From: Minisyncoccia bacterium
GTDB taxonomy: Bacteria; Patescibacteriota; Minisyncoccia; Phycocordibacterales; UBA2100
NCBI GenBank assembly: GCA_049297775.1
Contig: JBAQUX010000017.1
Coordinates: 21,337 to 85,336, forward strand
Reading direction: 5' to 3'
DNA: 64,000 nucleotides
Part shown: in pieces, positions 30,059-49,598 of the stretch
Layout: every line of letters starts with the position of its first letter
Numbering within the stretch: position 1 is the first letter of the stretch
Position numbers and translations under genes: made by a program
Notes under the pieces: generated by a model
The model's input: the letters and a program-made list of their open reading frames with translations, nothing else
Databases searched by the model: none
Told to the model about the DNA's origin: nothing

Positions 30059-30453
30059 AGGCCAAAAAATTCTAATGAGTGACTAGTAATAACTTTGAAC
30101 TTTTGCGATTCAATTCGGGCTTTCTTTAATACTGTTTCTGAGATGCACGAATCCACTTCTTCTCGCACACCACAGCCACTGCACGTCACATGATGATGGT
30201 GATGAGTCTGATACTCAAAAAAGGCTTTACCTTGTCTAAAATCTGCTTGGTAAACGATACCTTTTTCTACTAATTGTTTTAAAACTCGATACAGGGTTAC
30301 GTAATTTGCCTGTGAACCTACTTTTTTTTCAATACTATCAATTGAGCATGGACCATGTGTATCCATAAGTACACAAAGAACCGCGAGTCTACTTTTCGTC
30401 ACCGAAAGACCTGCGCGCGAAAGTATTATTTCTGCTTGTTCGGATGAATTCAT
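30037..30453 (-). CDS. zur: Fur-family metalloregulator, probably Zur
   Basis: Winged-helix N-terminus, HHHHH and CxxC..CxxC metal sites; zinc-transporter neighbours and palindromic boxes in the upstream region. Confidence 0.78.
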   Translation of the reverse strand: MNSSEQAEIILSRAGLSVTKSRLAVLCVLMDTHGPCSIDSIEKKVGSQANYVTLYRVLKQLVEKGIVYQADFRQGKAFFEYQTHHHHHVTCSGCGVREEVDSCISETVLKKARIESQKFKVITSHSLEFFGLCTKCAR

Positions 30454-30495
30454 AGGAAAAGTGTACCATATTAATATACTACATTTTTTTCTAAA

Positions 30496-30510
30496 TGCAA
30501 TTTAGTTGCA
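30496..30510. promoter_or_regulatory. Candidate Zur/Fur box 1 (TGCAAtttagTTGCA)
   Basis: Inverted repeat in the divergent zur / 30569 intergenic region. Confidence 0.45.
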
Positions 30511-30532
30511 AATAAATACGATATATGTAATT

Positions 30533-30549
30533 ATGCAACTTAATTGCAT
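30533..30549. promoter_or_regulatory. Candidate Zur/Fur box 2 (ATGCAActtaaTTGCAT)
   Basis: 6-bp inverted repeat ATGCAA/TTGCAT with 5-nt spacer, 20 nt upstream of the 30569 start. Confidence 0.5.
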
Positions 30550-30568
30550 TATTAATTAATAAAAAAGC

Positions 30569-31930
30569 ATGCGTTCATTAATTTTCTTGTTTGCGTTAGG
30601 TATATATTTATTTACTGCAGACCATGTATCTGCGCAAACTACATGCAACTACACAAGTAACAGAACATTGGGGCTAGGGTCACGTGGAGTCGATGTATCT
30701 GTACTGCAAAATATACTTAACGATTCTTTAAGTGATGGCGCTTCACCTCTTGCGGTTTCCGGGTATTATGGCTCAAAAACTCGACTGAGAGTAATTGAGT
30801 ACCAGAAAAAATTTCTTGGCATTTCTGTCTCAAACAGTTATGGCATTGTAGGTCCTAGAACAAGAGATCACTTGAAGAAATCCTGTGCATTAGCGGCGAC
30901 ATCAGTACAACTCAAAAATAGTTCATCTGGTGCTCAGGGTGAAACACCACACGGGGTCCGAGTGACGCAACAACATATTTCTGAAGGATTACTTCCCCCT
31001 GGAGCTTTGAGAGTCCCCTTTAACAAGGTTGCAATTACTTCAACAAATGAAGCCGTATCGGTTTCAAAAATTAAAATTGTACGCGCAGGGGTTGCAGCAG
31101 ACGGCATCTTTGAAAGTATTGTCATCCTCGATCATGAAGGCAACCCAATTTCAGACGAGAAAATCTTAACCGCAAATCATGATGCTGTCATACCGGTTGA
31201 CCTAACAATTAACGCTGGCAGTGAGGTAATAGTGATGGTTGCTGGGAACATTTCAAGTGAACTCACGGATTTTAGAGGTCAAAGACCAGAGTTGCATATA
31301 CAATCCATAGAAAGTACATCACAGATAGATACTCCATTCCCGCTACTTGGTACCACACATCTTGTTGTTGACTCCTTGAGCATCGGATCTCTTGACGCAT
31401 CACTTGCGGGAGAAGACCCTTCTTCTGACAGAACGATGTACATACATGACCCTAGAACAATATTCTCTGCCATACGTCTCACTGCTCGCAGTGCAGAGGA
31501 TATAATTCTAACGTCAATTTCGTGGGAGCAGAATGGTACCGCGAGCAGTGAAGATATTACAGACGTGGAAATTGTCATTGAGGGGCAAAATTTTGCAACT
31601 ACAAAAAATGGCAGGGAGTATTCTGCCGACGTTGGAGAAATTAAAATACAAAAAGGTCGTTCTATAGTGGCACAGATTCGAGGCGCTTTTACAGGAACCG
31701 GATCTGCGAGAACGGTAAAATTTGATATTGCAGGAAGTGATGCTATCGTTGCACGAGGATCGAGCTATAAGTTCCTTGTGCCCACACAGGCCTCAAGTAA
31801 TACAAGCACTTCAGGAAACTCAGTATTTCTTACTTCAGATGGCACAAGTGACGGCGACGCTCTCGAGCCGTTTTTTAGTGGCTCGCTGGTCACAATCAAT
31901 CCTGGCTCATTTAATTCAATATCAAAATAA
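30569..31930 (+). CDS. Secreted protein with N-terminal peptidoglycan-binding (PG_binding_1-like) domain and large beta-rich C-terminal part
   Basis: Signal peptide; GSRGVDVSVLQNILN...GYYGSKTRLRVIEYQKKFLGIS..GIVGPRT matches the PGBD repeat pattern; sits behind the Zur boxes. Confidence 0.65.
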   Translation: MRSLIFLFALGIYLFTADHVSAQTTCNYTSNRTLGLGSRGVDVSVLQNILNDSLSDGASPLAVSGYYGSKTRLRVIEYQKKFLGISVSNSYGIVGPRTRDHLKKSCALAATSVQLKNSSSGAQGETPHGVRVTQQHISEGLLPPGALRVPFNKVAITSTNEAVSVSKIKIVRAGVAADGIFESIVILDHEGNPISDEKILTANHDAVIPVDLTINAGSEVIVMVAGNISSELTDFRGQRPELHIQSIESTSQIDTPFPLLGTTHLVVDSLSIGSLDASLAGEDPSSDRTMYIHDPRTIFSAIRLTARSAEDIILTSISWEQNGTASSEDITDVEIVIEGQNFATTKNGREYSADVGEIKIQKGRSIVAQIRGAFTGTGSARTVKFDIAGSDAIVARGSSYKFLVPTQASSNTSTSGNSVFLTSDGTSDGDALEPFFSGSLVTINPGSFNSISK

Positions 31931-31940
31931 AAAATATCAT

Positions 31941-32762
31941 ATGACTGAATTTCTAACTACGTACGGATACGTACTACTCGCCGGACTTGTTCTGTTAGCC
32001 CCGACACTGGTCGGAGTACTATTTGGCAGTGCGCGAATTCAGAAATTTTTGCAAAGCCGAACACACACAATACTCGCCTTTTCTGTGGGCGTATATAGCG
32101 TTGTTGCATGGGGACTATTTTCAGAAGCATACGAACATATGCCGCTTCTACATGTACTTGGAGCAAGCTTAGGTGCTTTTCTCTTTTTAGAAATTCTTAT
32201 GCGCCTGTTAAGTAACACCCACCATCACCACCACAGCGACGGACACGACCACGAGCACGGCCCTGTAGATGCACGCGCAATGCTCATCTCCGACTCAGTA
32301 CATAATGTTACTGACGGACTATTGCTCGTACCTGCATTTGCCGTAAGTCCAATACTCGGTATTGCAACAACATTTAGTATATTTGCTCACGAATCAGTTC
32401 TCGAAACCGCAAAATACTTTGTACTTCGTGAAAGCGGGTACACACATGCACAGGCAATTGCTCGTGGGTTTTTTGCAGGATGCACCGTATTTATTGGTAT
32501 TGCGCTCGCGCTCTTTATTTCAGGGAGCGATACACTTGAACCATGGCTTCTCGCTGCGGCAACTGGTTCAATTGTATATGTATTACTACGCGACCTACTT
32601 CCAGACGTCTTCTTTCATACCTCAGAGGAAGAATCCTACACGAAAACACTCATAGCACTCATTCTAGGCGTAGTAACATTACTTGCAGTGCAAAGCATGC
32701 TCCCGCACGAACACGAATCTGAACATGCAGAGACAGGTGAAGCAGTGCACTTACTTGAGTAA
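31941..32762 (+). CDS. zupT: ZIP-family zinc transporter (ZupT-like)
   Basis: 8-TM ZIP topology, His-rich loop HHHHHSDGHDHEHG, conserved HESVLE motif; start at MTEFL (ATG 31941); the longer ORF from 31722 overlaps the upstream gene. Confidence 0.8.
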   Translation: MTEFLTTYGYVLLAGLVLLAPTLVGVLFGSARIQKFLQSRTHTILAFSVGVYSVVAWGLFSEAYEHMPLLHVLGASLGAFLFLEILMRLLSNTHHHHHSDGHDHEHGPVDARAMLISDSVHNVTDGLLLVPAFAVSPILGIATTFSIFAHESVLETAKYFVLRESGYTHAQAIARGFFAGCTVFIGIALALFISGSDTLEPWLLAAATGSIVYVLLRDLLPDVFFHTSEEESYTKTLIALILGVVTLLAVQSMLPHEHESEHAETGEAVHLLE

Positions 32763-33818
32763 GAAAGCGCAAATCTTTTTTATATCTGAAAGTGAGTGTT
32801 GTGGAAAATTCGCGATACGAATTTTTGTATCTTTATCTTTATTGTAACCAGATGCGATAAGAATACCTTTTGCTTTAATTGCCTCAATAATTGTTTTTGA
32901 GCCAGTAGGTGTAAGTGCAACAATGACTGTTTCTGAGCGCCACGCTGGATTTGAAATTGCTGGCGTCGCAATTTTTGATTTTGCGAGTGTTGCATAAACC
33001 AACTTAGCCTTCTCTTTCTGCTCCTTTCGCATACGTGTAACACCGAGCTTAAGCATCATTTTTATATCTTCATTGAGGAGATGCATGAAGAGCACATTAG
33101 GTGTTTCCAAGGTTTTACATTCACGGCCCTGCTTTACTAATGATGGAAACGAGTGAAATAAACCATTGTAGGTTCCTTCTGCAAAAAGACTTGCAGAATA
33201 TGCAATTGCACGTGGTGACAAAATCCCTACCCCAATACCAGCCGGTAACCCCATTCCCTTTTGGACAGAAAAGAACGTACAATCCATGAGTGCAGTAGGA
33301 ATATCTGCAGTCGGCGCAGATGACACAATATCAATTGCGATAAGCGCATCAGGAAATTTGCTTCGAATTGATTCAATAAACTTTCTTGGAAGCTGACTAC
33401 CGACACTAGTCTCAGAGTGAGTGAGAAATAATAGCTGAGGTCGTGACGATGCAGGGATATCATCAAGCGAGAAGGAGCCATCAGCCCGCGCATCAATACG
33501 CACAGCGTTTCTACCAGCAGTTTTGGCAAAAATATATGCTCGTTCACCAAAGTTACCGGAAACCAAGTGCAATGTTTCTGTGGTAGACATATTCTGAACG
33601 GTGCGTTCCATAAATTCAGTTGCAGACCCGAGAAATACTGTCTCAAAGTCCTTAGGTGCTTTAAATAATTTCTTTGTGTTCTCACAGAGTTCACGGTACA
33701 TGGTTGTAAAATATGCACTACGGTGAGATACAGAAGGTACATCTTTTTTAAGTGCCTCATCAAGATGCTTTTTAAAATACGCGTGAGTTTGTGAAGGGCC
33801 GACAGTAAAATATTTCAT
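32751..33818 (-). CDS. serC: Phosphoserine aminotransferase (class-V aminotransferase)
   Basis: FTVGPS...VSHRS N-terminal pattern and PLP-lysine context FFSVQKGMGLPAGIG; directly downstream of serA. Confidence 0.75.
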   Translation of the reverse strand: MKYFTVGPSQTHAYFKKHLDEALKKDVPSVSHRSAYFTTMYRELCENTKKLFKAPKDFETVFLGSATEFMERTVQNMSTTETLHLVSGNFGERAYIFAKTAGRNAVRIDARADGSFSLDDIPASSRPQLLFLTHSETSVGSQLPRKFIESIRSKFPDALIAIDIVSSAPTADIPTALMDCTFFSVQKGMGLPAGIGVGILSPRAIAYSASLFAEGTYNGLFHSFPSLVKQGRECKTLETPNVLFMHLLNEDIKMMLKLGVTRMRKEQKEKAKLVYATLAKSKIATPAISNPAWRSETVIVALTPTGSKTIIEAIKAKGILIASGYNKDKDTKIRIANFPQHSLSDIKKICAFLLK

Positions 33819-33819
33819 G

Positions 33820-35052
33820 TTAGTTGCAATGTATTACCCGAATGGTGCCTTTAATGTTTGATAAATCAGCAAGTAATTCTGGAGTGCATTTCCCTACAAA
33901 ATCAACAACTGCATACCCTACTTTTTCATTGGTACGCAATGATTGTCCGACGACGTTAATTTTCCTTTCTGCGAGCACTTCGTTGATTTGTGCAAGCATA
34001 CCCGGCACGTTTGCATGTATATGCACCAAACGAGCTGTCTTTTCTTGCTGAGGCATATTAGTTTGAGGAAAATTCACCGACAGCATGGAATCCCCAGTAG
34101 TACAGAAAGAAACGAGCTTGGCACTGACATACTGACCGATAGCGAGCTGTGCCTCCTCAGTACTCCCACCCACGTGTGGTGTAAGAATAACGTTTGGAAT
34201 GCCTTGTAATGGCGACAGAAACCTCTCGTCATTTCCCTTTGGTTCATGAGGAAAAACGTCTACCGATGCGCCAGCAAGTGCTCCGCTTCTAAGCGCCGCC
34301 GCGAGCGCATCGACAACAACAACGTGCCCACGACTCAGATTTAATAAATATGCACCCTTTTTCATAGACTTTAATTCTGGCGCATCAATTAAATCTGCAT
34401 TCTCTACTCGCCCATCAACATGCAGTGTTACCACATCAGCCCATGCAAGGAGTTCTTTTTGAGTTTTCATTTTTCTTGCGTTACCTAAGGCGAGCTTTTC
34501 TTGTATATCAAAAAATGCTACCTGCATGCCAAGCCCTTCTGCTACAACGGAAAGCTGTGAACCAATATTTCCATACCCAATGATGCCGAGTTTCTTGCCC
34601 CGAATCTCATAACTGCCTTTAGAAGATTTGTCCCAACCGCCTGCATGCGCTTCGATACTCTGAGAGAAAGTGCGACGCATCAGCATGATAATTTCTCCAA
34701 TCGCTAATTCGACTACCGAACGAGTGTTAGAGTATGGTGCATTAAAAACAGCAATTCCTTTTGCGGTACAGGTAGGAATATCAATCTGATTCGTGCCAAT
34801 ACAAAATGCACCAATCGCTCGTAACTGTGGTGCTGCAGAAATTACTGCCTGAGTAACTTTTGTCTTTGAACGAATACCCAAAAGTGCGACACCAGGAATT
34901 GCGGCAATGAGCTCTTGCTCACTGAGAGCCTTTGCGTGTGTCACAACCTGATATCCTGCATCTTCGAAGGTCTTTACTGCGTCACTGTTAATATTTTCTA
35001 GGAGAAGAACTTTTTGCTTAGTAAGCTTTTTTTGTTTCTTTACTGTAGACAT
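33820..35052 (-). CDS. serA: D-3-phosphoglycerate dehydrogenase with C-terminal ACT domain
   Basis: 2-hydroxyacid dehydrogenase fold, NAD motif GIIGYGNIGSQ, catalytic region, C-terminal ACT-like segment. Confidence 0.82.
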   Translation of the reverse strand: MSTVKKQKKLTKQKVLLLENINSDAVKTFEDAGYQVVTHAKALSEQELIAAIPGVALLGIRSKTKVTQAVISAAPQLRAIGAFCIGTNQIDIPTCTAKGIAVFNAPYSNTRSVVELAIGEIIMLMRRTFSQSIEAHAGGWDKSSKGSYEIRGKKLGIIGYGNIGSQLSVVAEGLGMQVAFFDIQEKLALGNARKMKTQKELLAWADVVTLHVDGRVENADLIDAPELKSMKKGAYLLNLSRGHVVVVDALAAALRSGALAGASVDVFPHEPKGNDERFLSPLQGIPNVILTPHVGGSTEEAQLAIGQYVSAKLVSFCTTGDSMLSVNFPQTNMPQQEKTARLVHIHANVPGMLAQINEVLAERKINVVGQSLRTNEKVGYAVVDFVGKCTPELLADLSNIKGTIRVIHCN

Positions 35053-35132: not shown

Positions 35133-35618
35133 CTAAGAGTTTCGAAGGGCACAGACCACCTCAGGCTCAGATGCACGTAACGCAATGAGTCGCTCGCCAG
35201 CAGTAATAAATGTACGCATTTCAGATTGCATAAGTAGACGCTGTTCTGGAGATGCCTCGGAAAATTTCTGTGCAAGCTGATGTGAAGTTGCATAGTTATC
35301 ATCCTCGAGAAACGGCGCCACTACGGTCTTCGCGAGCTTTTCTGCCTCAATATAGGCAGGGTACTTTTGCGCCACGGTAACAGAGAGAACATTTTTTCCA
35401 TAACACGCTTTGTCCCACCCACCAAGAACTTCGTTTACGACACGTGCAACTTTTCTCATTAAGAGCTGTGGTGTCTCCTTTTGGCTTGATGGTGCACCTT
35501 CCTCCGTTGGAGAATTTGCGTACACACCTGCGGTAGGGACTCCCAACATCCATGCAGCAAGAAAGCCAGCACGAAATATTTTTCCTAACGTTGTTCCAGC
35601 TTTTTTTCGCTCAATCAT
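35133..35618 (-). CDS. Hypothetical secreted protein
   Basis: 161 codons, N-terminal signal-like segment, 4-nt overlap with the upstream gene (operon). Confidence 0.5.
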   Translation of the reverse strand: MIERKKAGTTLGKIFRAGFLAAWMLGVPTAGVYANSPTEEGAPSSQKETPQLLMRKVARVVNEVLGGWDKACYGKNVLSVTVAQKYPAYIEAEKLAKTVVAPFLEDDNYATSHQLAQKFSEASPEQRLLMQSEMRTFITAGERLIALRASEPEVVCALRNS

Positions 35619-36598
35619 TTTTGTAATTTAAATTGTTGTAGGTAGTATGATGAACGTGTAGGCTCAAATCCTCGCACGTAGTCTGTTCTCCCCTCCTTAT
35701 ATGTTGAAAACTCAGGGACATACGTTGGAGTAAATGTAACTTTTCCAGTACCAACTTCTTCTGTAATACCAATTGCATTCGCAGCTGCGGGCGACAAGTC
35801 GTAATTTCTCCCAAAACGATCGTAAAATGCACCGCTATTATTAACTACTATTGGAATTTCCTGACCATTTGGACCTTTCATAACACCAACAGTACCATCA
35901 GGATAGTGCTGACTGGCCATGTGATACAAATCGTCATCACGAATTGCTCCAGAGGCAGTCACTATACTACCTGCCATTTTGTCGCCCGGATCACCATAGC
36001 GCGATGCGATACCACTCTCCGGAACTCCAATCTTTTTTTCTGCTTCATCATTAGTAAGATATCGTCCATTGGTATTCCTTCGTCCCTCTTGTTTACCAAG
36101 GACGTCATCGAGAGCACTTCTTTTTTCCTCTTGTCGGCACATAACAATGTACCCATTCGTAGCTGTATCATCACACACTTCAGTACGTTTACTTGCTGCC
36201 GCAATACCCTGGGCTTGTGACTTTTTGTCACTACCAAAAAAACCTCGTGACATGACCGCAACTCCCTTCGTGCAATTTTTCTGACATTTTTCACCATAAT
36301 TATGTTTAATGTCTGTCTCTTTCATACAGCGTCTATGTTCAACTTTTCCAGTTTTATTTTTTATGACTAATTCAACACCTTCAAGTCGTGCATCCTCATG
36401 GCATTTTTTTAACTCCGCACCTTTGAGACGACGTTCATTACAGTCACTAATTCTTAGTTTTTCTTTTGCCTCGCATTGCGGATCCAGTGTGTCTGCCTTC
36501 TTTGTGTTTTGGGGCGCTGCCTTCTTTGTTTGTGCAAGAGCAAGCGAGCCAGAACAAAGAATGAGTACGAGACTGCACGCAAATAAAATTCTTTTCAT
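35615..36598 (-). CDS. RlpA-like lipoprotein with double-psi beta-barrel domain; Cys/Lys-rich N-terminal region
   Basis: Signal peptide from MKRILFACSLVLILCSGSLA; C-terminal GIASRYG..GSIVTASGA..DPBB pattern; start at ATG 36596-36598 (ORF open to 36745). Confidence 0.7.
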   Translation of the reverse strand: MKRILFACSLVLILCSGSLALAQTKKAAPQNTKKADTLDPQCEAKEKLRISDCNERRLKGAELKKCHEDARLEGVELVIKNKTGKVEHRRCMKETDIKHNYGEKCQKNCTKGVAVMSRGFFGSDKKSQAQGIAAASKRTEVCDDTATNGYIVMCRQEEKRSALDDVLGKQEGRRNTNGRYLTNDEAEKKIGVPESGIASRYGDPGDKMAGSIVTASGAIRDDDLYHMASQHYPDGTVGVMKGPNGQEIPIVVNNSGAFYDRFGRNYDLSPAAANAIGITEEVGTGKVTFTPTYVPEFSTYKEGRTDYVRGFEPTRSSYYLQQFKLQK

Positions 36599-36638: not shown

Positions 36639-37295
36639 CTAGAGTAATTTGAGCAACTGAGCAAAGTCAGTAATTTCATGGTCGGCAACTGCGACGACTG
36701 GCTCTCTTCGAGCGTGTTCAGTGTAGGCGATAAATGTACTAGCAACTCCTTGCCTCTTTACATCGTAATCAGTCATACCATCTCCTACCATATATATCTT
36801 TCCCGTAAGTCCGAGGGAGCGAATTTGTTCTGCTTTCCCTCCTTTCTGCGATGCTGGACGCATCGTATCTACGCCAACCACCCTACCCTCTGTATCGTAG
36901 ACAAAATTATTTGCAAATACATGTGACCGAGGAATAGACAACACGTCAGTGACGGGAAAAATAAGATCGTCAAAACCACCTGATACTACATATATAGTAT
37001 CTGCGTGCTGAGTAAAAAAATCTACATGTTCGCTAAATGAACGGGTCACGTACTTTGTCATGGTCGGCGCAAAAGCATGTACATCACTCACTGTCAGAGA
37101 CAAAAGCGGCATGCGACGCGAAAGTGATTCCTCATAGGGAATGGTCCCGTCCATACCCAAATTAGTAATTTCTTTCATTTTTTTGAGAATATCTTCTTTC
37201 TCTGAATTATTTCTGAGTGCGTATTCCGCGAGAACTTCAAGTGATTCTACGCTTGCAATAGTGCTATCAAAATCGAAAACAAGAATGGGATTCAT
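36639..37295 (-). CDS. serB: HAD-IB phosphoserine phosphatase-like hydrolase
   Basis: DFDST motif I, GDGMTD motif IV; in the same operon as serA/serC. Confidence 0.65.
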   Translation of the reverse strand: MNPILVFDFDSTIASVESLEVLAEYALRNNSEKEDILKKMKEITNLGMDGTIPYEESLSRRMPLLSLTVSDVHAFAPTMTKYVTRSFSEHVDFFTQHADTIYVVSGGFDDLIFPVTDVLSIPRSHVFANNFVYDTEGRVVGVDTMRPASQKGGKAEQIRSLGLTGKIYMVGDGMTDYDVKRQGVASTFIAYTEHARREPVVAVADHEITDFAQLLKLL

Positions 37296-37303
37296 ACGGT
37301 ACG

Positions 37304-38878
37304 TTACGAACGAATGATGTATTTCTCAATATGGGCTACAGTTCCACCTATTTTTTTTGAAGGATTAAAAATATTTTCTGCGTCGAATAGAGTTTTTATT
37401 GCACCGAAGACTCCATACGTCTCACTGCCATAAAATTTATCAAGAAATGGTGTACGAATAATGCCATCGCCATGGTCTGCGCTCATGTGCCCGTCCATTT
37501 CATTAACCAGAGCAAAAGTCACATCACAGAGCTCAACAATTTTTTGTGCCACATCGGGCAAAGACATATCGAACACGGGAATAATACGTAACGCCCCATC
37601 GCCAATATGCCCATGGAATCCATATGTTATGTGGCGGTCTTCAAGAATCTTTACGAGCTGAGGGACGAACTCATCAAACTTCTCTATAGGCACAATGATA
37701 TCTTCGATGCACGGCACGGCATGATGCGCCCCCTCATGACTATCACGCATTACTTTGAAGCTTGAACGACGTATTTTCCATAAGTTATCAGCAAGTACTG
37801 GGTCTGCAACTACATGCGATTCAATGCGTTTACGCGCTAACTCAGACATGCATCCCCATGCTTGTAAACTAGTCGCGTTTGCATTCTTTTCACTAAACTG
37901 CGCGAGAATCATTAAGTGTGCACCCGACATTAAGTCTGCGGTTGCGGCTGTTTCAGTGGGGAGTAATTGTTTTGCGTATTCATACGTATGTATATCAAAT
38001 GTCTCACACCCTTCTGGATTATGCGCCATAACAGTTAGGAGTACTTCCGGGAGATGCAGGAGGTCGAGCACAGGAATAGCGAGTAGCTGTGGATGCTGTG
38101 GAATTGGCACCAGTGTCAGTTGTGCGCGAGTAATAATGCCCAATGTCCCTTGTGAGCCGACAAAGAGTTTTGCCATATTTACTGTTCCATCTTTTTGGTT
38201 ATAGATACGCTCTATGCGGTACCCTGATGCGCACTTGGTCACGGGACGGTTTAGCGTGCGAAGTGCACCAGCACTGCCAAACAATATGTGTGCAATTTCT
38301 CTATATATTTCACCCTCAAAGCTTTCAAGTCCCTGCTTTTCTTGAAACTGCTCTGGGCTGAGCTGACCAAACTCGTACTCAACACCGTCTGAAAGAACCA
38401 CCCACACACGCTCAACGTTATCTATGGTTGCACCAAACCGCACACTTTTTTCACCAGACGCATTGTTACCAATCATGCCACCAATACCACAGACGTCTTT
38501 AGATGATGTATACGGTGCAAACATAAGACCATGAGGGAGTGCGATATGTTCAATATCTCTATAATACGCACCCATGTCTACGATTGCGCGTTTTTTTTCT
38601 ACATCTATCACCACTTGGTGCATGTACTTCTTCAAATCAACAATGAGCCCTTCAGTTAGCGAACCCCCAGACATACAAGTCCCTCCTGCGCGCGGTGAGA
38701 GCGTAAAGTTACCCGGAGCATTCTTCACCAAGAGGCCAAGCTCCTCGACCATGCGTGGATACACCACAGCACACGGAGGAACTACGAAAACACTTGAATC
38801 CTTTGAAGCAATTTTTATATCATCCGCATCCACTGAGAAATCAAAATTATTCTCCTCTAAAAATTGTACTGCGTTCAT
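37304..38878 (-). CDS. FAD-linked oxidase (PCMH-type FAD-binding domain plus FAD-oxidase C-terminal domain; GlcD/D-lactate dehydrogenase-like)
   Basis: FAD_binding_4 pattern (RAGGTCMSGGSLTEGLIVDL..CGIGGMIGNNASG), about 520 aa; start at MNAVQ. Confidence 0.75.
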   Translation of the reverse strand: MNAVQFLEENNFDFSVDADDIKIASKDSSVFVVPPCAVVYPRMVEELGLLVKNAPGNFTLSPRAGGTCMSGGSLTEGLIVDLKKYMHQVVIDVEKKRAIVDMGAYYRDIEHIALPHGLMFAPYTSSKDVCGIGGMIGNNASGEKSVRFGATIDNVERVWVVLSDGVEYEFGQLSPEQFQEKQGLESFEGEIYREIAHILFGSAGALRTLNRPVTKCASGYRIERIYNQKDGTVNMAKLFVGSQGTLGIITRAQLTLVPIPQHPQLLAIPVLDLLHLPEVLLTVMAHNPEGCETFDIHTYEYAKQLLPTETAATADLMSGAHLMILAQFSEKNANATSLQAWGCMSELARKRIESHVVADPVLADNLWKIRRSSFKVMRDSHEGAHHAVPCIEDIIVPIEKFDEFVPQLVKILEDRHITYGFHGHIGDGALRIIPVFDMSLPDVAQKIVELCDVTFALVNEMDGHMSADHGDGIIRTPFLDKFYGSETYGVFGAIKTLFDAENIFNPSKKIGGTVAHIEKYIIRS

Positions 38879-38961
38879 ATAGAAACATAGTAGCATTTAA
38901 TACATAAAGTTACAGACGCACAGCCTGGAAAATATATGGCTTCTGTGAGAATATACTGCTC

Positions 38962-40281
38962 ATGAACGAACAACTCGCGCGCATAGGTATATATGCTTTT
39001 TTTATCGGTAACGTCTGTACAATTATTTTTTTGTGGTGGAGCGGTTCAAGCTCACTTTTTCTTGCAGATACACCTGGAGCCCTAGTCTCACTCGGACGAC
39101 TGACGGGACTCATGGCACAAGCATGTCTCCTACTCCAAATTATATTGATTGCACGTGTAAAGTTTATTGAGCGTTTTTTTGGAAACGACAAAATGAATAC
39201 AGTACATCGCTGGCTCGGCTTTTCTCTCTTAGGATTTTTTCTTGCACATCCATTCTTCCTGGTACTTGGGTACGCATATAAAAATGAAGCTACGCTGGCG
39301 CATCAGTTTGTAGAGTTCCTCACTGACTGGCATGACGTTGCAAATGCGCTCCTTGCTGTAATTATTTTTATAATTGTTGGCATAAGTTCGCTTAAAATCA
39401 TCCGAAGTCGTGTACGTTACGAAACATGGTATCTAACTCATTTTCTTACCTATCTTGCTATTTTTCTTGCATTTGATCACCAGACTAAATTTGGTACGGT
39501 AAGTGATGGCGCACCACTCTACTACTGGCTCACACTTAACTTTGGCATTGGTGGCCTCTTCTTACTCTACCGATGGATTCGTCCGCTCTACCGCGGGTGG
39601 TACCACAAATTTTCTATTTCAAAAATCGTAAAGGAGAACGATACCATTACGTCAGTACATATTACCGGAAACGATCTCGCTTCATTCACGTTCGAAGCAG
39701 GACAATATGCAACGCTTCGCTTTCACCAAAAAGGGTTCTTCTTCCCCCACCCTTTTTCTTTTTCAAAGGCATATGACGGAACAGAGCTTCGTTTCTCTAT
39801 AAAAAATCTTGGCGACTTCACCAGTAAAATTCCAACACTTGCTGTTGGTACTCGAGTCACACTTGGAGGACCGCTTGGAAAATTTACGCGTGCATCTCGT
39901 AAAAAAAATAAAATTCTCTTAATCGCTGGCGGTGTTGGGATAACACCTATTCGCGCACTTGCTGAAGACTGTTCAAAAAATGGCGATGATGTGGTGGTTC
40001 TCTACTCGGCGCGAACTAAGGCAGACCTAGCGCTCAGCGCAGAGATGCGTGCCATGCCTCTACGCTTAGTATGTTTTTGTAGCGATGCAACACCAGAAGA
40101 TGGCGCAGGGTTTGTAAATGGCTTCCTTGACGGAAATGCTATAGAGAAGGCAGTACCAGACTTTTTGGAACGTGATGCATTTGTATGTGGCCCAGGACCA
40201 ATGATGGAAGCCATGATAACAGCTCTAAAAGACCGCGGAGTACACAAAGAGAACATTCACTTCGAGCGCTTTGCTTACTAG
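38962..40281 (+). CDS. NOX/ferric-reductase-family membrane flavocytochrome (bis-heme TM domain plus FAD/NAD(P)H domain)
   Basis: Two His pairs spaced 13-14 residues apart in TM helices (HRWLGFSLLGFFLAH; HFLTYLAIFLAFDH); HPFS FAD motif; GGVGITP NAD(P)H motif; CGPGPM. Confidence 0.8.
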   Translation: MNEQLARIGIYAFFIGNVCTIIFLWWSGSSSLFLADTPGALVSLGRLTGLMAQACLLLQIILIARVKFIERFFGNDKMNTVHRWLGFSLLGFFLAHPFFLVLGYAYKNEATLAHQFVEFLTDWHDVANALLAVIIFIIVGISSLKIIRSRVRYETWYLTHFLTYLAIFLAFDHQTKFGTVSDGAPLYYWLTLNFGIGGLFLLYRWIRPLYRGWYHKFSISKIVKENDTITSVHITGNDLASFTFEAGQYATLRFHQKGFFFPHPFSFSKAYDGTELRFSIKNLGDFTSKIPTLAVGTRVTLGGPLGKFTRASRKKNKILLIAGGVGITPIRALAEDCSKNGDDVVVLYSARTKADLALSAEMRAMPLRLVCFCSDATPEDGAGFVNGFLDGNAIEKAVPDFLERDAFVCGPGPMMEAMITALKDRGVHKENIHFERFAY

Positions 40282-40287
40282 CGCCAA

Positions 40288-41943
40288 TTAGACTCTCCTG
40301 TCTATATGCTTTAAAGATTCTTCCCAGGTGCCACCTACCTTCTTCCCTGGGTTAAAAATACCGAGAGGGTCAAATATAGATTTTGTTTCTTTGAATAGTT
40401 CAATCATCTGAGAGCTAAACATCATATGTAGAAATGGTGTACGTACTAATCCGTCATTGTGCTCACCTGAGATTGAACCATTAAATTCATGGATGAGTTC
40501 ATACACTTTTTCTGACAGTTCCTTGATGGTCTGAATTGAAACATCATCATGCAATTTCATAAGTGGTATGACATGTAAATTTCCATCACCTACGTGTCCT
40601 GCAATCGTGTAGATAAGCTTGTACGAATCGAGTAATTTTTCAAAACGAGGCATAAATGCTGGAAAATCCTTTGCATGTATAACCACATCTTCAATAAATG
40701 GTGCCGTGCGTAAACCCTTGAGCTTTGAGCGCAGTAAGTTGAAGCTCTCTCGTCTGAATGTCCAGTATTTTTGTGCTTCCCGTTCTGTGGTGATGCGTCG
40801 TACTGAAACACCTGGGTGTGTTTTCTTAAGTTCAGAAAGCGCGCTATATGCAGCGGATACTTCTGCTTCTACCTCAGCTTCGGTGGTTCCCGTAAATTCT
40901 GCGAGGAGTACCACTTTTGGTATACCACCGGTGAGAACCATGAGAAACTCTGGAATAAATTGTATACCCAGAGAAATAATATTTCCTCCCATACGCTTTG
41001 CAATATCGAAAAAGAAACGCATCGCGATTTTAAAGGTGTGGTCATCAAATAACTCAAAACTTTCTGGTGTATGTGCAAGCACTGCTTCGGTTACGGCAGG
41101 AATGAGAGATACGTCTTTCACCATCACTACCATCATCTTTGAAACAGGAGTAACTGGCACGAGTCCAATTTTCATTTTCGTGACCATACCCAAGGTCCCC
41201 TGTGCTCCACAAATGAGCTTTGATAGATCGAGTGTATCCGTAGCTTTGTCATACACTTCCCACAAATAATATCCCGACGAGTTCTTGCTTACGGTTGGGC
41301 GAGCATGTTCAATTTCTTCCGCATGCTTCTGTATCAATGCGTAGATTGCACGATGGATATCGCCAAAAAAGGTCGTGTCATTTTCTAAAATATTTTTTAA
41401 TTCGATACCAGAAAAAGCCTTAAATAGGTACTCATTCCCATCTGCGCATACCATTGAGACTTCACGCACATAGTTAAGTGTTTTACCATAACGCAATGTT
41501 TTTTCACCGCCGGAGTTATTATTTAAAATACCACCGAGCGCACATAATTCGCGCGATGCTGGATAACTTGCAAATATAAGTCCTTTTTTTAATGTTTCTT
41601 TTTCTAGGTCTCGGTAATAACAGCCCGGCTCAACAACTGCATAGTCTGGACCGATTTCATGAATCGCATGTAAATATTTTGTGCACGAAAGTACTACTGA
41701 GTCGGTAAGTGGTCCCCCAGACATATCTGTTCCTGCTGAGCGAGCGGTAAGCGATATTTTTGCGTCTCCCGCGATGCGTTCACTTCTCACCGCACGGACA
41801 ACGGCACAGACATCAGCGCTATTTTTTGGCTCTATAACCTCTGCGGGCGTAATTTCAAAAATACTTGCATCATGCGCAAATTGCGCAAGCACTTCGGGTG
41901 CACTACTTCGCGTACCTTCTAAAGTTAGATTTTTTAATGACAT
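40288..41943 (-). CDS. FAD-linked oxidase, second paralogue (PCMH-type)
   Basis: FAD_binding_4 pattern (RSAGTDMSGGPLT..CALGGILNNNSGG); start at MSLKNL (ORF open to 42015). Confidence 0.72.
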   Translation of the reverse strand: MSLKNLTLEGTRSSAPEVLAQFAHDASIFEITPAEVIEPKNSADVCAVVRAVRSERIAGDAKISLTARSAGTDMSGGPLTDSVVLSCTKYLHAIHEIGPDYAVVEPGCYYRDLEKETLKKGLIFASYPASRELCALGGILNNNSGGEKTLRYGKTLNYVREVSMVCADGNEYLFKAFSGIELKNILENDTTFFGDIHRAIYALIQKHAEEIEHARPTVSKNSSGYYLWEVYDKATDTLDLSKLICGAQGTLGMVTKMKIGLVPVTPVSKMMVVMVKDVSLIPAVTEAVLAHTPESFELFDDHTFKIAMRFFFDIAKRMGGNIISLGIQFIPEFLMVLTGGIPKVVLLAEFTGTTEAEVEAEVSAAYSALSELKKTHPGVSVRRITTEREAQKYWTFRRESFNLLRSKLKGLRTAPFIEDVVIHAKDFPAFMPRFEKLLDSYKLIYTIAGHVGDGNLHVIPLMKLHDDVSIQTIKELSEKVYELIHEFNGSISGEHNDGLVRTPFLHMMFSSQMIELFKETKSIFDPLGIFNPGKKVGGTWEESLKHIDRRV

Positions 41944-42070
41944 ATAGATTATTTTATCATGTGTTTTGCGCATTACTCTACGATAAATGTAGATACTGAA
42001 ATACGAATGCGCCACGCCTTTGTCCCTGAGTAGCGCAAGTGGGCTCAGATACGTATACTAACGACACGCT

Positions 42071-43378
42071 ATGTCACTCACTCACAGTACAAAAATTTGG
42101 GATGTAATCGTTATAGGTGGTGGACCAGCCGGGATGACGGCCGCTGCAGAAGCTGCCGCACTGGGCGCATCTGTGCTCTTACTTGAGAAGAACCCAAAGT
42201 TGGGTAAAAAACTACTCATTACCGGTGGCGGTCGTTGCAATGTCACCAATGCAGAGACAGACACACGTACATTACTCTCAAAATATAAAGACGCTCATAA
42301 ATTTCTCTACTCACCCTTTTCACAATGGAACGTTACTGATACCCTCACGTATTTTACTTCTCGTGGAATGGCAATTAAGGAAGAGAACGAAAAGCGTATC
42401 TTCCCTGTAAGTGACACTGCACAATCAGTATGGGACGTACTTGTGGCACACATGAAAGAAACAGGAGTGCGCATTCGACATACTGGAGTAAAGCAATTAA
42501 AAATAGTTCGAGGAAAGGTTACCGCAGTGCAGTTGGTGAACGGTGAGGAAATTCAAGCCCGCACCTATATTATTGCAACGGGCGGAACTTCACATCCAGA
42601 AACTGGGTCAACCGGTGACGCATATGCGTGGTTACAAAAACTCGGACATACGGTACATACACCATCACTAGCACTCGTACCTGTAGCACTCAAAGATGCA
42701 TGGATAAAAAAGTTACAGGGTACGACACTTTCGTCAATACGCATCTCTGTACTTCAAAACGGAAAGGTGTACCACAAAAAGGATGGGCGTGTCTTACTCA
42801 CCCACTTTGGTATTACTGGGCCAACTATTTTAAATCTCAGTAGCGATATCGGAGAACTTTTAAAATATGGCAGTGTCGAACTTGCCCTCGATTTGTTCCC
42901 GACCGAAGACTATGAATCTTTTGATAAACGCGTGATGGGAATAATACGAACAGACGCAAATAAAAAATTAAAAAATGTTCTCGCCACGCTCATTCCTTCA
43001 GGCGCCACTACCGCATTCATGGGACTCGCAAATATTCCAGAGGATAGTGTCTGTAATTCAGTCACCAGAGATGAACGGAGACGACTCACCCACATTTTAA
43101 AAAAAATACCTTTAACCGTTTCAGGACTACTGGGTACTGACAAGGCTGTCGTTTCAAATGGCGGCCTTGATTTGCACGAGGTAGACACTCGTACGATGCA
43201 ATCGCGTCATCATCCGACCGTCTTTGTAATTGGTGACATGCTCAATATCGATAGACCTTCTGGTGGATACAGCCTTCAATTGTGTTGGACTACTGGAGTT
43301 GTTGCTGGTCGCGCTGCTGCACAGCTTTCTTTGCATCCTGAATCTCATCAAACAGACGCACCAAAAACCAAAGCGTAA
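42071..43378 (+). CDS. HI0933/BaiN-family NAD(P)/FAD-dependent flavoprotein
   Basis: VIVIGGGPAGMTAA dinucleotide motif and TGGGRCNVTN signature of the HI0933 family. Confidence 0.8.
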   Translation: MSLTHSTKIWDVIVIGGGPAGMTAAAEAAALGASVLLLEKNPKLGKKLLITGGGRCNVTNAETDTRTLLSKYKDAHKFLYSPFSQWNVTDTLTYFTSRGMAIKEENEKRIFPVSDTAQSVWDVLVAHMKETGVRIRHTGVKQLKIVRGKVTAVQLVNGEEIQARTYIIATGGTSHPETGSTGDAYAWLQKLGHTVHTPSLALVPVALKDAWIKKLQGTTLSSIRISVLQNGKVYHKKDGRVLLTHFGITGPTILNLSSDIGELLKYGSVELALDLFPTEDYESFDKRVMGIIRTDANKKLKNVLATLIPSGATTAFMGLANIPEDSVCNSVTRDERRRLTHILKKIPLTVSGLLGTDKAVVSNGGLDLHEVDTRTMQSRHHPTVFVIGDMLNIDRPSGGYSLQLCWTTGVVAGRAAAQLSLHPESHQTDAPKTKA

Positions 43379-47450: not shown

Positions 47451-49436
47451 CTACTCCTCTTCTGTAATTCCTCCGTCCCAATCAGGGTTATAAACTATTT
47501 CCTGTACGTTTTCAGGCCACGGTGGCAAGTTCATTGCAGGGGCGGCTCTGTTGTAGTGACGCTTTGGAGTCTCGGGCTCAAGGATGAGCGACTCTATGAG
47601 TAAGAGTGTTTTCTTTGGATCATCGCTCGGGAATCGGTTGGCACTTGCTCTAATGCTTAACAACTTCATAAATGTTGCCGCCTGTTGTTCAAGGAAAAAT
47701 TCAACATTGTAGTTTGTACGATATGAATCACCAAAGCGCTCACGGACAAAATAATCTACGAGGAGTCTTCCCTGCTCTATGTGCTGTTCAGTATTAATGC
47801 CACTACCGAACAATGCATAGTAGAGACCAAAAACAGAATCGGAAGCTTCTGCCTTTTTTATGATTACTTCAATATCCTCATGCGTCGCCTCTGTCTCACC
47901 TTTCGTTATATCTGGCTGTGTCCGTTCGAGCTTGCCATAAACACGCTTAATTCTATCAAATCGCTTTTTTTCATTGTTAATGTATCTATTGATACGATTT
48001 TCCTTTTTTTCACTTTGCGTCGGATTACTTCCTTTTCGCGGATTTTCTTCAATAAGGCGCCTCAGGAGTCTCCGTCGTGCACCTACTGAAAGTGCTACTC
48101 CTTTCTCCTTTGCCTTATCGAGTGCCTCCTCTAATTGCGCTCGCGCATCGTTCAAAATACGCTCATGTAGTTTTTCTGGTCTGCGCACCACCATATTAAA
48201 AATTACTGACTGCAATTCATAGGTTTCAAAAAGTGGCTTGTCGGTATTACCACATAACTGCTCTGTGCACGGCTCAGTCGCAATCAATGCTTCTGCTTTA
48301 GTATTAAATTTTGAGAGTGCCTTTTCAAACCCATCTGGACTTGAACAACATTCACGCACGATAACATCATGAGGAATATAAGGATACCGCTGTGACAAGT
48401 CGTCGAAATGAACCTTTGTCATAGCGAGCCCCTCCACCACACTATGAGGATACATAAATATCAAATCGCGGAGACGCTCTTCGCTCGTCATCCATGGCAT
48501 CCGCTTACGCTCAGCTTCGTCTTCAGGACAGTATGTCGCTTTTAAATGTTGCCACACGTCTTTATACACTTCAAAGCGCACAAGTACCTGACTTGGATAG
48601 TATTTGAGTACGTGGGAAATTGTGCGCGGATCAAGTGGGTTCGGCTCCCCTTCCATTTTCTTAAATACATCTGCGCCAAAGCCGTATGCATGCGATGCAA
48701 TATTTGCCACATCTTCGATGGGTAAATTCCTCTGCATTGATGCGGTGACCAAAGGAAAAAACTCTGTGGCAAATAGGCGCAACTGTTCAACTGCGTACGC
48801 TTCTTTTGCTTGAGAGAGTTGTGCTGGTGAAAGTTGTGCTGTTTCTGTCTCAGCAATGCCATATTTTTTTGCAGCTCCACCTAACAGCTTTTTATGCAGT
48901 AACTCATGAGGCGTTGGCTGTTCGTCACGATAGAGAATCATGCGCCCGGTCTGGGAGTCCTTTGCTCGCTTTTGTGGATTTTGCACCCATTTTTTCTGCT
49001 CCTCGTTAAGACCGTAGCGATATCTAAATTTCAAAAAGAGCCCGAACCCGAACCAAAAGGCATCACCAATTTTCTTCTCAAATTCTGAGTGAGAAAGATG
49101 TTTTCCATTATATTCATGCTGTACCGTCACTGCCCCTTCTCCATCTCGTACAAAACACTGTTCGTTATAAATGGTTCGTATCGCACGGGTAAATGCCTTC
49201 TTGTAACGTAACCGCAATGCACCAATTTCTGAGTCTCTTCCGGTGTCAGGTGCCGCACGATGACTTTCAATTTTGCCCAAAAGCTCATCGAGAAATGGTC
49301 CGGGCTCTGCTTTTACCACCACCGGGTCCGAATTGCGTCGAGAGCTATCTTCACGCTCAGCGCGCATCACTGCCCTATCTCTCAAAATTGCATGTATTCC
49401 TGGCTTTTCTGCGGTCATTGCATACGAGTATACCAA
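47451..49436 (-). CDS. Hypothetical 661-aa protein (charged, helix-rich; no recognisable family)
   Basis: Long uninterrupted ORF; sits between the core genes and the tRNA-Gln/integrase junction. Confidence 0.55.
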   Translation of the reverse strand: MVYSYAMTAEKPGIHAILRDRAVMRAEREDSSRRNSDPVVVKAEPGPFLDELLGKIESHRAAPDTGRDSEIGALRLRYKKAFTRAIRTIYNEQCFVRDGEGAVTVQHEYNGKHLSHSEFEKKIGDAFWFGFGLFLKFRYRYGLNEEQKKWVQNPQKRAKDSQTGRMILYRDEQPTPHELLHKKLLGGAAKKYGIAETETAQLSPAQLSQAKEAYAVEQLRLFATEFFPLVTASMQRNLPIEDVANIASHAYGFGADVFKKMEGEPNPLDPRTISHVLKYYPSQVLVRFEVYKDVWQHLKATYCPEDEAERKRMPWMTSEERLRDLIFMYPHSVVEGLAMTKVHFDDLSQRYPYIPHDVIVRECCSSPDGFEKALSKFNTKAEALIATEPCTEQLCGNTDKPLFETYELQSVIFNMVVRRPEKLHERILNDARAQLEEALDKAKEKGVALSVGARRRLLRRLIEENPRKGSNPTQSEKKENRINRYINNEKKRFDRIKRVYGKLERTQPDITKGETEATHEDIEVIIKKAEASDSVFGLYYALFGSGINTEQHIEQGRLLVDYFVRERFGDSYRTNYNVEFFLEQQAATFMKLLSIRASANRFPSDDPKKTLLLIESLILEPETPKRHYNRAAPAMNLPPWPENVQEIVYNPDWDGGITEEE

Positions 49437-49527: not shown

Positions 49528-49598
49528 TGCTAGATCGTCTAATGGTAGGACAGCGCCCTCTGAAGGCGTTTATCTTGGTTCGAGTCCAAGTCTGGCAG
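49528..49598 (+). tRNA. tRNA-Gln (anticodon CTG), CCA not encoded
   Basis: Acceptor TGCTAGA/TCTGGCA with U1-A72, D arm GTCT..GGAC, anticodon stem GCGCC/GGCGT with loop CTCTGAA, T arm CTTGG TTCGAGT CCAAG, discriminator G. Confidence 0.75.

Follow-up and report, generated by a model that had tools for sequence, protein, structure and literature searches.

Bacterial three-domain proteins of the FRD-FNR family have been described under several names, among them SpNOX-like, 'long bFRE' and 'MsrQ-like with NAD-binding domain'. The Streptococcus pneumoniae NADPH oxidase, SpNOX (PDB 8QQ7 and 8QT6; Hajjar 2017, Dubach 2024, Petit-Hartlein 2024), takes NADH as well as NADPH, and its cryo-EM structure has a solvent-exposed outer heme and no recognisable O2 site; the enzyme reduces cytochrome c directly, has very weak ferric reductase activity, and possibly does not use O2 as its physiological acceptor (PMC11564096). 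The SpNOX structural papers leave the physiological acceptor of bacterial NOX-like proteins open. Zhang et al. (2013) proposed a third histidine, four residues past the helix-3 outer-heme ligand (His-119 of NOX2), as the mark of NOX enzymes generating reactive oxygen species (ROS) as opposed to ferric reductases, listed a conserved helix-4 Thr-Gly (Thr-178/Gly-179 of NOX2) in the same signature, and described a YedZ/MsrQ/STEAP branch in which the first heme histidine is replaced by a conserved Arg and MsrQ lacks a fused FNR domain. Meheust et al. (2021, eLife; PMC8238504) found 1437 clusters holding PF01794 proteins that carry a PF00175 domain, alongside ApbE and FMN-binding genes, and reported flavinylation to be strikingly under-represented in the candidate phyla radiation. 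Here we analyze a NOX-like gene in a 64,000-nt stretch of DNA from a Minisyncoccia bacterium (Patescibacteria), referred to below as the window, whose positions serve as coordinates. The gene lies among three other flavoprotein genes, FADox1, FADox2 and an HI0933-like gene (Table 1).

An initial annotation had recognized the NOX-like gene as encoding a bis-heme NOX/FRE-type flavocytochrome in a bacterium with a reduced genome, flanked by two FAD oxidases resembling GlcD and D-lactate dehydrogenase (D-LDH) and by an HI0933 flavoprotein, and had proposed that the four genes constitute a compact electron-transfer route. The identifications are borne out, for the flavocytochrome by its Pfam domains, motifs and best PDB match (SpNOX) and for the flanking flavoproteins by Pfam and TIGR00275. 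The route is not: the strands alternate, the flanking enzymes are unanchored, and the FAD enzymes make no NAD(P)H. We favor a different reading, to which we assign a probability of roughly 0.6, that the locus brings together, in a lineage-specific way, separate transcription units with a cofactor theme in common and is not one machine, with a functional FRD-FNR family member as its central gene.

The NOX-like protein matches the Pfam domains Ferric_reduct (1.6e-18), FAD_binding_8 (4e-6) and NAD_binding_1 (7e-11). The complete NOX/FRE signature that had been annotated is exact, with histidine pairs spaced by 14 (His82/His96) and 13 (His160/His173) residues followed by HPFS, GGVGITP and CGPGPM. 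Across 18 homologues with 37–57% identity (alignment A1), the four heme histidines and thus their paired geometry, H263/P264/F265, the glycines of the NAD(P)H motif, and C409, G410, P411 and M414 are all invariant, which indicates that these motifs are a conserved functional signature and excludes a chance match. The best PDB sequence matches are three SpNOX entries (including 8qq7/8qt6), aligned over the full length with E ∼3e-18. Both histidine pairs align with those of SpNOX, which we take from their order to be H69/H83 and H129/H142; heme roles for H69 and H83 are given in PMC11564096. An AlphaFold2 model built from the 18-sequence alignment (pLDDT 89.9, pTM 0.84) has six long helices before residue 215, with the heme histidines in helices 67–108 and 153–176, and then a β-barrel and a Rossmann-type (FNR-type) domain. 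Foldseek ranks SpNOX first among PDB structures (TM 0.69/0.76), followed by DUOX1, NOX2 and NOX5. No docking or extra domain was seen in the Pfam matches or in the AlphaFold2 model.

The filters used by Hajjar et al. (2017) to recognize bacterial NOX enzymes comprise two His-X12-14-His pairs on separate transmembrane helices at least 20 residues apart, an H[PSA]F[TS][LIMV] FAD motif, an NADPH motif, and three to seven (ideally six) transmembrane helices with a C-terminal dehydrogenase. The window protein has His82-X13-His96 and His160-X12-His173 on two transmembrane helices, GVGITP within its GGVGITP motif, and six helices followed by a dehydrogenase domain in a NOX fold, as judged from AlphaFold2 and Foldseek. 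Its HPFSF fits the first four positions of the FAD motif; the fifth residue, Phe, is outside the listed set. The residue four past His96 is Leu100 (family consensus HPLLL), so that the equivalent of NOX2 His-119 is missing, as it likewise is from SpNOX. The invariant His82 and the fused FAD/NAD domain ruled out assignment to the YedZ/MsrQ/STEAP type. By these sequence characters the NOX-like protein is a member of the already described FRD-FNR family named above. A literature search combining Patescibacteria with ferric reductase, cupredoxin or NADPH oxidase returned no description of the family in the candidate phyla radiation. NCBIfam also gives the dehydrogenase domain a score against PyrK, an electron-transfer subunit, and at one locus (L085:2771-5231) a NOX-like gene, 50% identical, is followed after 19 nt by a gene for a 371-residue dihydroorotate dehydrogenase (DHO_dh). 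Taken together, the PyrK score and this adjacency make a link to pyrimidine synthesis possible.

Homologues that are 40–60% identical to the window protein occur in Taylorbacteria, Paceibacterota, Magasanikbacteria, Peregrinibacteria and other Patescibacteria. To describe the gene neighborhoods we used one genome per GTDB species, giving 80 loci (32–46% identity, 10-kb flanks) in which the four genes on either side were clustered and the clusters named by Pfam. These loci derive from Patescibacteria, Chloroflexota/Limnocylindria, Dormibacterota and many Actinomycetes, with Streptomyces and Amycolatopsis among the latter. Genes for FMN_bind, in 17 loci, and ApbE, in 19, directly follow the NOX-like gene among the actinobacterial, Chloroflexota and Dormibacterota loci. 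The neighbors in Patescibacteria include a small cupredoxin in six loci, five of them directly upstream on the same strand, and a cytochrome-b5-like protein in five; rubrerythrin is a neighbor in four loci, from Patescibacteria and other lineages. The extracytoplasmic partners have a signal peptide or membrane anchor at the N-terminus, which would place them to take electrons at the outer face, and the cupredoxins retain the type-1 Cu ligands His/Cys/His/Met. Such a placement agrees with the exposed outer heme of SpNOX and its direct reduction of cytochrome c (PMC11564096). This adjacency, mostly on the same strand, suggests that the cytochrome-b5-like proteins and cupredoxins are protein acceptors for the NOX outer heme, a pairing of which we found no description in the literature. 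The rubrerythrins with clear N-terminal signal peptides that adjoin NOX-like genes suggest that peroxide is reduced outside the membrane at the expense of NAD(P)H. In a neighbor-joining tree rooted on SpNOX, the window protein belongs to a small clade with L168, L083 and L018/L087 (locus designations of our surveys), which is nested among the cytochrome-b5- and cupredoxin-associated clades of Patescibacteria. The Patescibacteria clades have the ApbE/FMN_bind group as their sister.

By analogy with SpNOX, NAD(P)H would bind the cytosolic C-terminal domain of the NOX-like protein and deliver hydride to FAD, from which electrons would pass singly to the inner heme b (His82/His160), the outer heme b (His96/His173) and an acceptor at the outer face. 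Its general role would be to export reducing equivalents, independently of quinones, to acceptors outside the cytoplasm or by default to O2. We propose this role because the adjacent gene in the nearest other Patescibacteria clades encodes a membrane-anchored cytochrome-b5-like or type-1-copper protein. We do not infer a dedicated role in ROS generation.

From the open reading frame (ORF) coordinates at the window locus, the strands of the four flavoprotein genes alternate (-, +, -, +), which implies at least three transcription units. Both oxidases had been annotated as divergent from NOX; this is true of FADox1, across an 83-nt spacer, and not of FADox2, which converges on NOX with 6 nt between the two. 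FADox2 and the HI0933-like gene are divergent, with a spacer of 127 nt. A search of the three spacers for promoters, terminators, operators and palindromes found none above shuffled expectation; the 83-nt FADox1/NOX spacer has no palindrome or strong sigma-70 match. A minus-strand ORF with a VTT domain (DedA-like) overlaps the 3' end of the HI0933-like gene by 89 nt (43290-43378), and its true start may be further downstream.

FADox1 does head a serine operon, as had been annotated, in the order FADox1, serB-like, 327-residue ORF, 161-residue ORF, serA and serC-like, all on one strand with gaps of 8, 40, -4, 80 and 1 nt. The rlpA assignment made in this operon calls for correction, the 327-residue ORF falling below both curated thresholds (DPBB_1, 23.7 bits against a cutoff of 28.8; TIGR00413, 18.7 against 82). 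The serB-like gene scores 67 bits with TIGR00338 (cutoff 144) and exceeds the cutoff of TIGR01488. Relatives differ in what they carry between serB and serA: L083 (2626-5001) and L087 have a 791-residue Ddl-Ddl tandem fusion and L168 (6007-6291) has a 94-residue ORF.

Table 1. Positions of the genes, motifs and spacers at the window locus and of partner genes at other NOX-family loci (prefixed by the locus designation)
Feature	Position	Strand	Description
FADox1	37304-38878	-	524 aa by gene callers; longest ORF to 38896 = 530 aa; PCMH/VAO-type FAD oxidoreductase
FADox1/NOX divergent spacer	38879-38961		83 nt; gene-caller coordinates
NOX-like gene	38962-40281	+	439 aa; bis-heme membrane domain of six helices fused to a cytosolic FAD/NAD(P)H dehydrogenase domain
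His82 codon	39205-39207	+	Inner heme ligand; helix 3
His96 codon	39247-39249	+	Outer heme ligand; helix 3
His160 codon	39439-39441	+	Inner heme; helix 5
His173 codon	39478-39480	+	Outer heme; helix 5
HPFS FAD-binding motif	39748-39759	+	Residues 263-266
GGVGITP NAD(P)H-binding motif	39928-39948	+	Residues 323-329
CGPGPM motif, NAD(P)H lobe	40186-40203	+	Residues 409-414
FADox2	40288-41943	-	551 aa by gene callers; longest ORF to 42015; GlcD/D-LDH-type
HI0933-like gene	42071-43378	+	435 aa; TIGR00275 'aminoacetone oxidase family' FAD enzyme
serB-like HAD-IB phosphatase	36639-37295	-	8 nt downstream of FADox1; PF12710
Variable insert in serine operon	35133-36598	-	327-aa weak DPBB/RlpA-like ORF (35615-36598) and 161-aa ORF (35133-35618)
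serA	33820-35052	-	410 aa; D-3-phosphoglycerate dehydrogenase; 2-Hacid_dh, 2-Hacid_dh_C, ACT
serC-like class-V aminotransferase	32751-33818	-	PF00266
Cytochrome-b5-like neighbors	L003:9559-10008, L008:317-730, L006:8476-9387, L007:421-1491, L013:4820-5197
Cupredoxin neighbors	L042:9471-9911, L009:5223-5918, L012:204-656, L015:9490-9951, L027:7707-8144, L005:8666-9187
Rubrerythrins adjoining NOX-like genes	L010:9249-9914, L036:8740-9360		Signal peptide

FADox1 and FADox2 share 32% identity, and both consist of FAD_binding_4 and FAD-oxidase_C domains (E 1e-23 to 1e-43); among PDB structures they are related to LctD, glycolate oxidase, LDHD and D-2-hydroxyglutarate dehydrogenase (D2HGDH). In NCBIfam, FADox1 best matches the N-terminal half of the YdiJ D2HGDH profile with 258 bits (cutoff 1350; profile positions 17-538 of 1018) and then GlcD, and FADox2 matches the same half with 251 bits (positions 22-553 of 1018) and glcD with 201 bits. 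Neither qualifies as a full-length YdiJ (NF049975, ∼1018 aa, >1350 bits). FADox2, whose best PDB matches are the glycolate oxidase 9qgz and LctD, retains the full Arg/His/His/Glu-His set of this enzyme group in the segments FRRESF, GHVGDGNLH and SGEHNDG, as does E. coli YdiJ, and by its sequence is a canonical stand-alone D-2-hydroxyacid dehydrogenase or oxidase. The HI0933-like protein matches Pfam HI0933_like at 4e-76 and TIGR00275 with 384.9 bits (cutoff 183.8) over profile positions 1-401 of 401, and would be a generic TIGR00275 flavoenzyme; both it and FADox2 occupy a variable slot downstream of NOX. The sequences of FADox1, FADox2 and the HI0933-like protein contain no signal peptide or membrane anchor, so none of the three enzymes can be the outer-face acceptor. 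They are also not obvious donors because they make no NAD(P)H, which the intact GGVGITP/CGPGPM site points to as the substrate of the NOX-like protein.

We next consider whether the four genes stay together. A tblastn search of the 80 NOX loci with the proteins neighboring NOX in the window found FADox1 in a single locus, L018, which is the closest; FADox2 is absent there and the HI0933 gene is 5 kb off. In a survey of the FADox1 family (80 metagenome loci recovered with a family alignment, 39–66% identity), NOX is present in L089 only. The pairing is absent from 78 of the 80 loci in each survey. A conserved neighbor of FADox1-family genes was sought in the 71 of 80 loci with callable neighboring ORFs, and none was found; the candidate rules 'always with serA' and 'always with NOX' both fail in these 71 metagenome loci. 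The HI0933 gene lies in the searched flank of one of the 80 FADox1-family loci and, outside L168, of one of the 80 NOX loci. Outside the window clade, a GlcD-type oxidase is found within three genes of NOX in one locus and BBE-type oxidases in two. These loci (L032, L046 and L052) were considered as independent recurrences and rejected as such, two oxidases being BBE-type and one GlcD-type, consistent with chance.

Closer relatives keep part of the arrangement. A congener, L168, reproduces it exactly (FADox1 77%, NOX 77%, FADox2 75% and a partial HI0933 71% identical, or ∼75% at the amino acid level) and is the only genome to repeat the full block. FADox1 is head-to-head with NOX in L083, L084 and L089 (NOX 57–59%) and in L087 (NOX 46–49%), where NOX is followed on the same strand by another FAD oxidase, FADoxB, and then by a 405-residue thioredoxin-like membrane protein and a NUDIX gene. 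FADoxB of L083/L087 was rejected as a FADox2 orthologue, being 30% identical to FADox2 versus 44% to FADox1. L018 and L087 share 98.6% DNA identity, yet they differ by a 3.4-kb indel directly downstream of NOX (L087:9338-12771 versus L018:11338). The L087 segment encodes FADoxB, the NUDIX hydrolase and the 405-residue protein, a polytopic membrane protein with a thioredoxin-like CxxC and no Pfam match. The HI0933 gene is not in the block of L083 or L087, and in L018 it is at the 5-kb distance given above.

FADox1 is kept as first gene of the serine operon in five genomes (including the window, L168, L083 and L087/L018). Except for the slot after NOX, L168, L083 and L018/L087 keep synteny all the way from ZIP via serC-serA-serB-FADox1-NOX to VTT-DUF1295-DUF2177, and this long synteny means that the FADox1–NOX adjacency can be explained by descent. 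Conservation of the neighborhood, whose absence the initial annotation had named as a refutation, gives a mixed result: it extends to the full block in the congener and to FADox1–NOX adjacency in a small clade, but not to the remaining loci of either family or to the downstream slot. Co-localization in independent lineages beyond inherited synteny was not found; the co-occurrence of FAD oxidase and NOX is confined to one small Patescibacteria clade, with a composition that varies even there. The four-gene block is peculiar to this lineage and does not recur as a system.

What FADox1 might do in the serine operon is suggested by precedent. SerA reduces 2-oxoglutarate to D-2-hydroxyglutarate (D-2-HG), whose recycling by an FAD-dependent D2HGDH drives serine synthesis (PMC9504171), and serA is among the most frequent neighbors of d2hgdh (PMC8651671). 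As the first enzyme of the FADox1-serB-(insert)-serA-serC operon, FADox1 could accordingly oxidize a 2-hydroxyacid made in serine synthesis, with SerA-derived D-2-HG as the precedent, an assignment that is the best functional lead we have for this enzyme but that we regard as tentative and place somewhat below even odds.

Several observations weigh against our favored reading of juxtaposed units around a functional FRD-FNR protein, or against the roles assigned within it. To our knowledge, heme synthesis is not known in Patescibacteria. Hidden Markov models (HMMs) built from the neighbors of the homologues gave no match to ApbE, FMN_bind, cupredoxin, Cyt-b5 or rubrerythrin in the 64-kb window, and those for ApbE and FMN_bind found nothing in window ORFs of at least 50 residues at E ≤1. 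The FADox1–NOX pair is accompanied by a downstream FAD-oxidase paralogue in four of the five clade genomes, namely the window, L168, L083/84/89 and L087 but not L018, and the presence of non-orthologous paralogues, FADox2 or FADoxB, beside NOX could hint at selection for the pairing. The role of FADox1 in D-2-HG oxidation is weakened both by an altered active site and by the many family members that are unlinked to ser genes: the 80 FADox1-family loci lack ser genes, save for two weak 2-hydroxyacid-dehydrogenase matches. In D2HGDH, D-LDH and GlcD, the residues Arg386, His434, His441, Glu475 and His476 show strict conservation, and mutation of His441 or Glu475 abolishes activity (human D2HGDH structure paper). 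His441 corresponds to Arg431 in FADox1 (GHIGDGALR) and Glu475 to Asp468 (SADHGDG), as confirmed by pairwise HMMER alignments to LctD, 3pm9, LDHD and human D2HGDH. The same Arg and Asp are found in FADoxB and in all 18 sampled Patescibacteria homologues (alignment A2). The noncanonical site comprises FADox1 residues 424-431 and 468-469, with Arg in place of the second metal-binding His. FADox1 is thus a member of a divergent clade found across Patescibacteria, and the chemistry of this clade may differ, for example by being metal-independent.

The route originally proposed, in which the FAD oxidases oxidize 2-hydroxyacids and the electrons exit through the NOX-like protein for extracellular reduction or ROS production, is favored by the probable lack of quinones and electron-transfer flavoprotein (ETF) in the organism, whose FAD oxidases would then need some acceptor. 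It also agrees with the four-gene arrangement kept in the congener and with the small clade, in which FADox1 is always head-to-head with NOX and most members (not L018) have the downstream paralogue. We nevertheless consider it very unlikely. The alternating strands allow no shared operon, the NOX-like domain has a complete NAD(P)H site whereas FAD-dependent 2-hydroxyacid dehydrogenases do not yield NAD(P)H, and the NOX-like protein shows no docking or extra domains. Its components also fail to stay together, since 78 of the 80 loci in both surveys lack the pairing, near-identical strains differ in the downstream slot, and HI0933 is outside the block in L083 and L087 and well removed from it in L018. 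A redox-balancing module for serine synthesis, in which FADox1 recycles D-2-HG while NOX dumps NADH electrons outside and so pulls the unfavorable NAD+-dependent step of SerA, with co-regulation from the 83-nt spacer, agrees with the five genomes that combine FADox1-serB-serA-serC with a divergent NOX at NOX identities down to 46%. The SerA–D2HGDH coupling is established in other bacteria (PMC9504171, PMC8651671), and the use of NADH by SpNOX (PMC11564096) is compatible with it. However, that conservation sits within a larger syntenic block of close relatives, the spacer has no operator or palindrome, FADox1 has a noncanonical active site, and NOX homologues elsewhere among the 80 loci are not near ser genes, so we judge this explanation unlikely.

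A related and distinctly unlikely scenario is that the NOX-like conduit lost its adjacent cytochrome b5 or cupredoxin partner, came to lie head-to-head with the serine operon, and now forms with FADox1 a redox valve that is free of a respiratory chain, with NOX discharging SerA-derived NADH and FADox1 re-oxidizing D-2-HG or another 2-hydroxyacid. If true, such a valve would let unfavorable serine biosynthesis run without quinones or ETF; synteny among close relatives is the sole argument for it. The metal-homeostasis genes nearby raise another alternative, that the NOX-like protein is an assimilatory ferric reductase that reduces extracellular Fe(III) for the ZIP transporter under control of the Fur-family regulator, for which plant FRO2 with IRT1 is an analogue. 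ZIP (31941-32762), FUR (30037-30453) and YibE_F (28931-30058) are 6–10 kb from NOX and belong to the same syntenic block in L018, L087 and L168, and iron assimilation has been proposed for some MsrQ-like systems (Meheust 2021, PMC8238504). We find this highly improbable, because the whole serine operon separates ZIP and Fur from NOX, ZIP is not near NOX in the other 78 loci, SpNOX's activity as a ferric reductase is very weak (PMC11564096), and the ZIP/Fur pair may equally be a zinc system.

We retain the reading of a lineage-specific juxtaposition with a functional FRD-FNR protein at its center. With the failure of the four-flavoprotein machine the locus itself is of modest value. Patescibacteria are thought to be without respiratory chains, quinones and heme synthesis. 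A widespread and well-conserved bis-heme exporter driven by NAD(P)H would give their fermenters quinone-free NAD(P)+ regeneration or extracellular redox chemistry, and would imply heme scavenging. Partners that vary by lineage (cupredoxin, cytochrome b5, rubrerythrin, FMN-binding) are the more useful guide to candidate acceptors.

The rest of the window contains housekeeping genes typical of a small genome, including EF-Ts, S2, alanyl-tRNA synthetase, release factor, L25, malic enzyme, a P-type ATPase and ABC and MFS transporters. The metal-homeostasis cluster (28931-32762) consists of YibE_F, the Fur-family regulator, a secreted PG_binding_1 protein and the His-rich ZIP transporter; the C-terminus of YibE_F is also His-rich (HAGHGHAHSHAH). 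In L168 all three of YibE_F, Fur and ZIP keep their synteny with the serine operon; in L018 and L087 ZIP does so too. At the other end, a 661-residue ORF with no Pfam or PHROG match (47451-49436) comes just before a tRNA-Gln/integrase junction, where tRNA-Gln (49528-49599) overlaps the 3' end of a gene for a 578-residue large serine recombinase/integrase (49539-51275; phrog_95). Beyond the integrase are ∼13 kb in which most ORFs defy annotation; terminase-like and HerA-like fragments and a 1011-residue ORF are among them, and the GC content falls to 0.37–0.40. The segment 49528-64000 is probably an integrated mobile element or prophage that extends past the window end.

Compared with named systems, the flanking enzymes are related to known proteins but differ from them in context. 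FADox1 shares with the SerA-coupled D2HGDH systems (P. stutzeri D2HGDH and E. coli YdiJ) a PCMH/VAO FAD enzyme encoded with serA, serB and serC; unlike E. coli YdiJ it is missing the C-terminal half and has no ETF gene nearby. FADox2 differs from the GlcD and D-lactate dehydrogenase (LDHD, LctD) systems in having no partner gene for GlcE/GlcF, ETF or an Fe-S protein beside it. The HI0933-like protein matches the HI0933/TIGR00275 (BaiN-like) flavoproteins over their full length and above the curated cutoff, without a functional link to its neighbors. The NOX-like protein has the Pfam architecture (PF01794 and PF00175) of the 'MsrQ-like' proteins of Meheust et al. (2021; PMC8238504), and the ApbE/FMN_bind-adjacent homologues from Actinobacteria, Chloroflexota and Dormibacterota (32–38% identity) match the context described there. 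The window differs from those systems in containing neither ApbE nor FMN_bind, and the patescibacterial members pair with cupredoxin, cytochrome-b5-like protein, rubrerythrin or nothing. With the 'bFRE long form' of Zhang et al. (2013), a class defined by architecture alone and without an assigned function, the protein shares an FRD with both histidine pairs and FAD and NADPH domains, and the lack of the NOX-specific His-119. SpNOX is 23–24% identical and a distant outgroup in the tree; the window protein is ∼16 residues longer between helices 3 and 4 and has HPFSF where SpNOX has HPFSI. The two proteins nevertheless share the four heme histidines, the FAD and NAD(P)H motifs, and a three-domain architecture in one chain of ∼400–440 residues that is free of regulatory domains.

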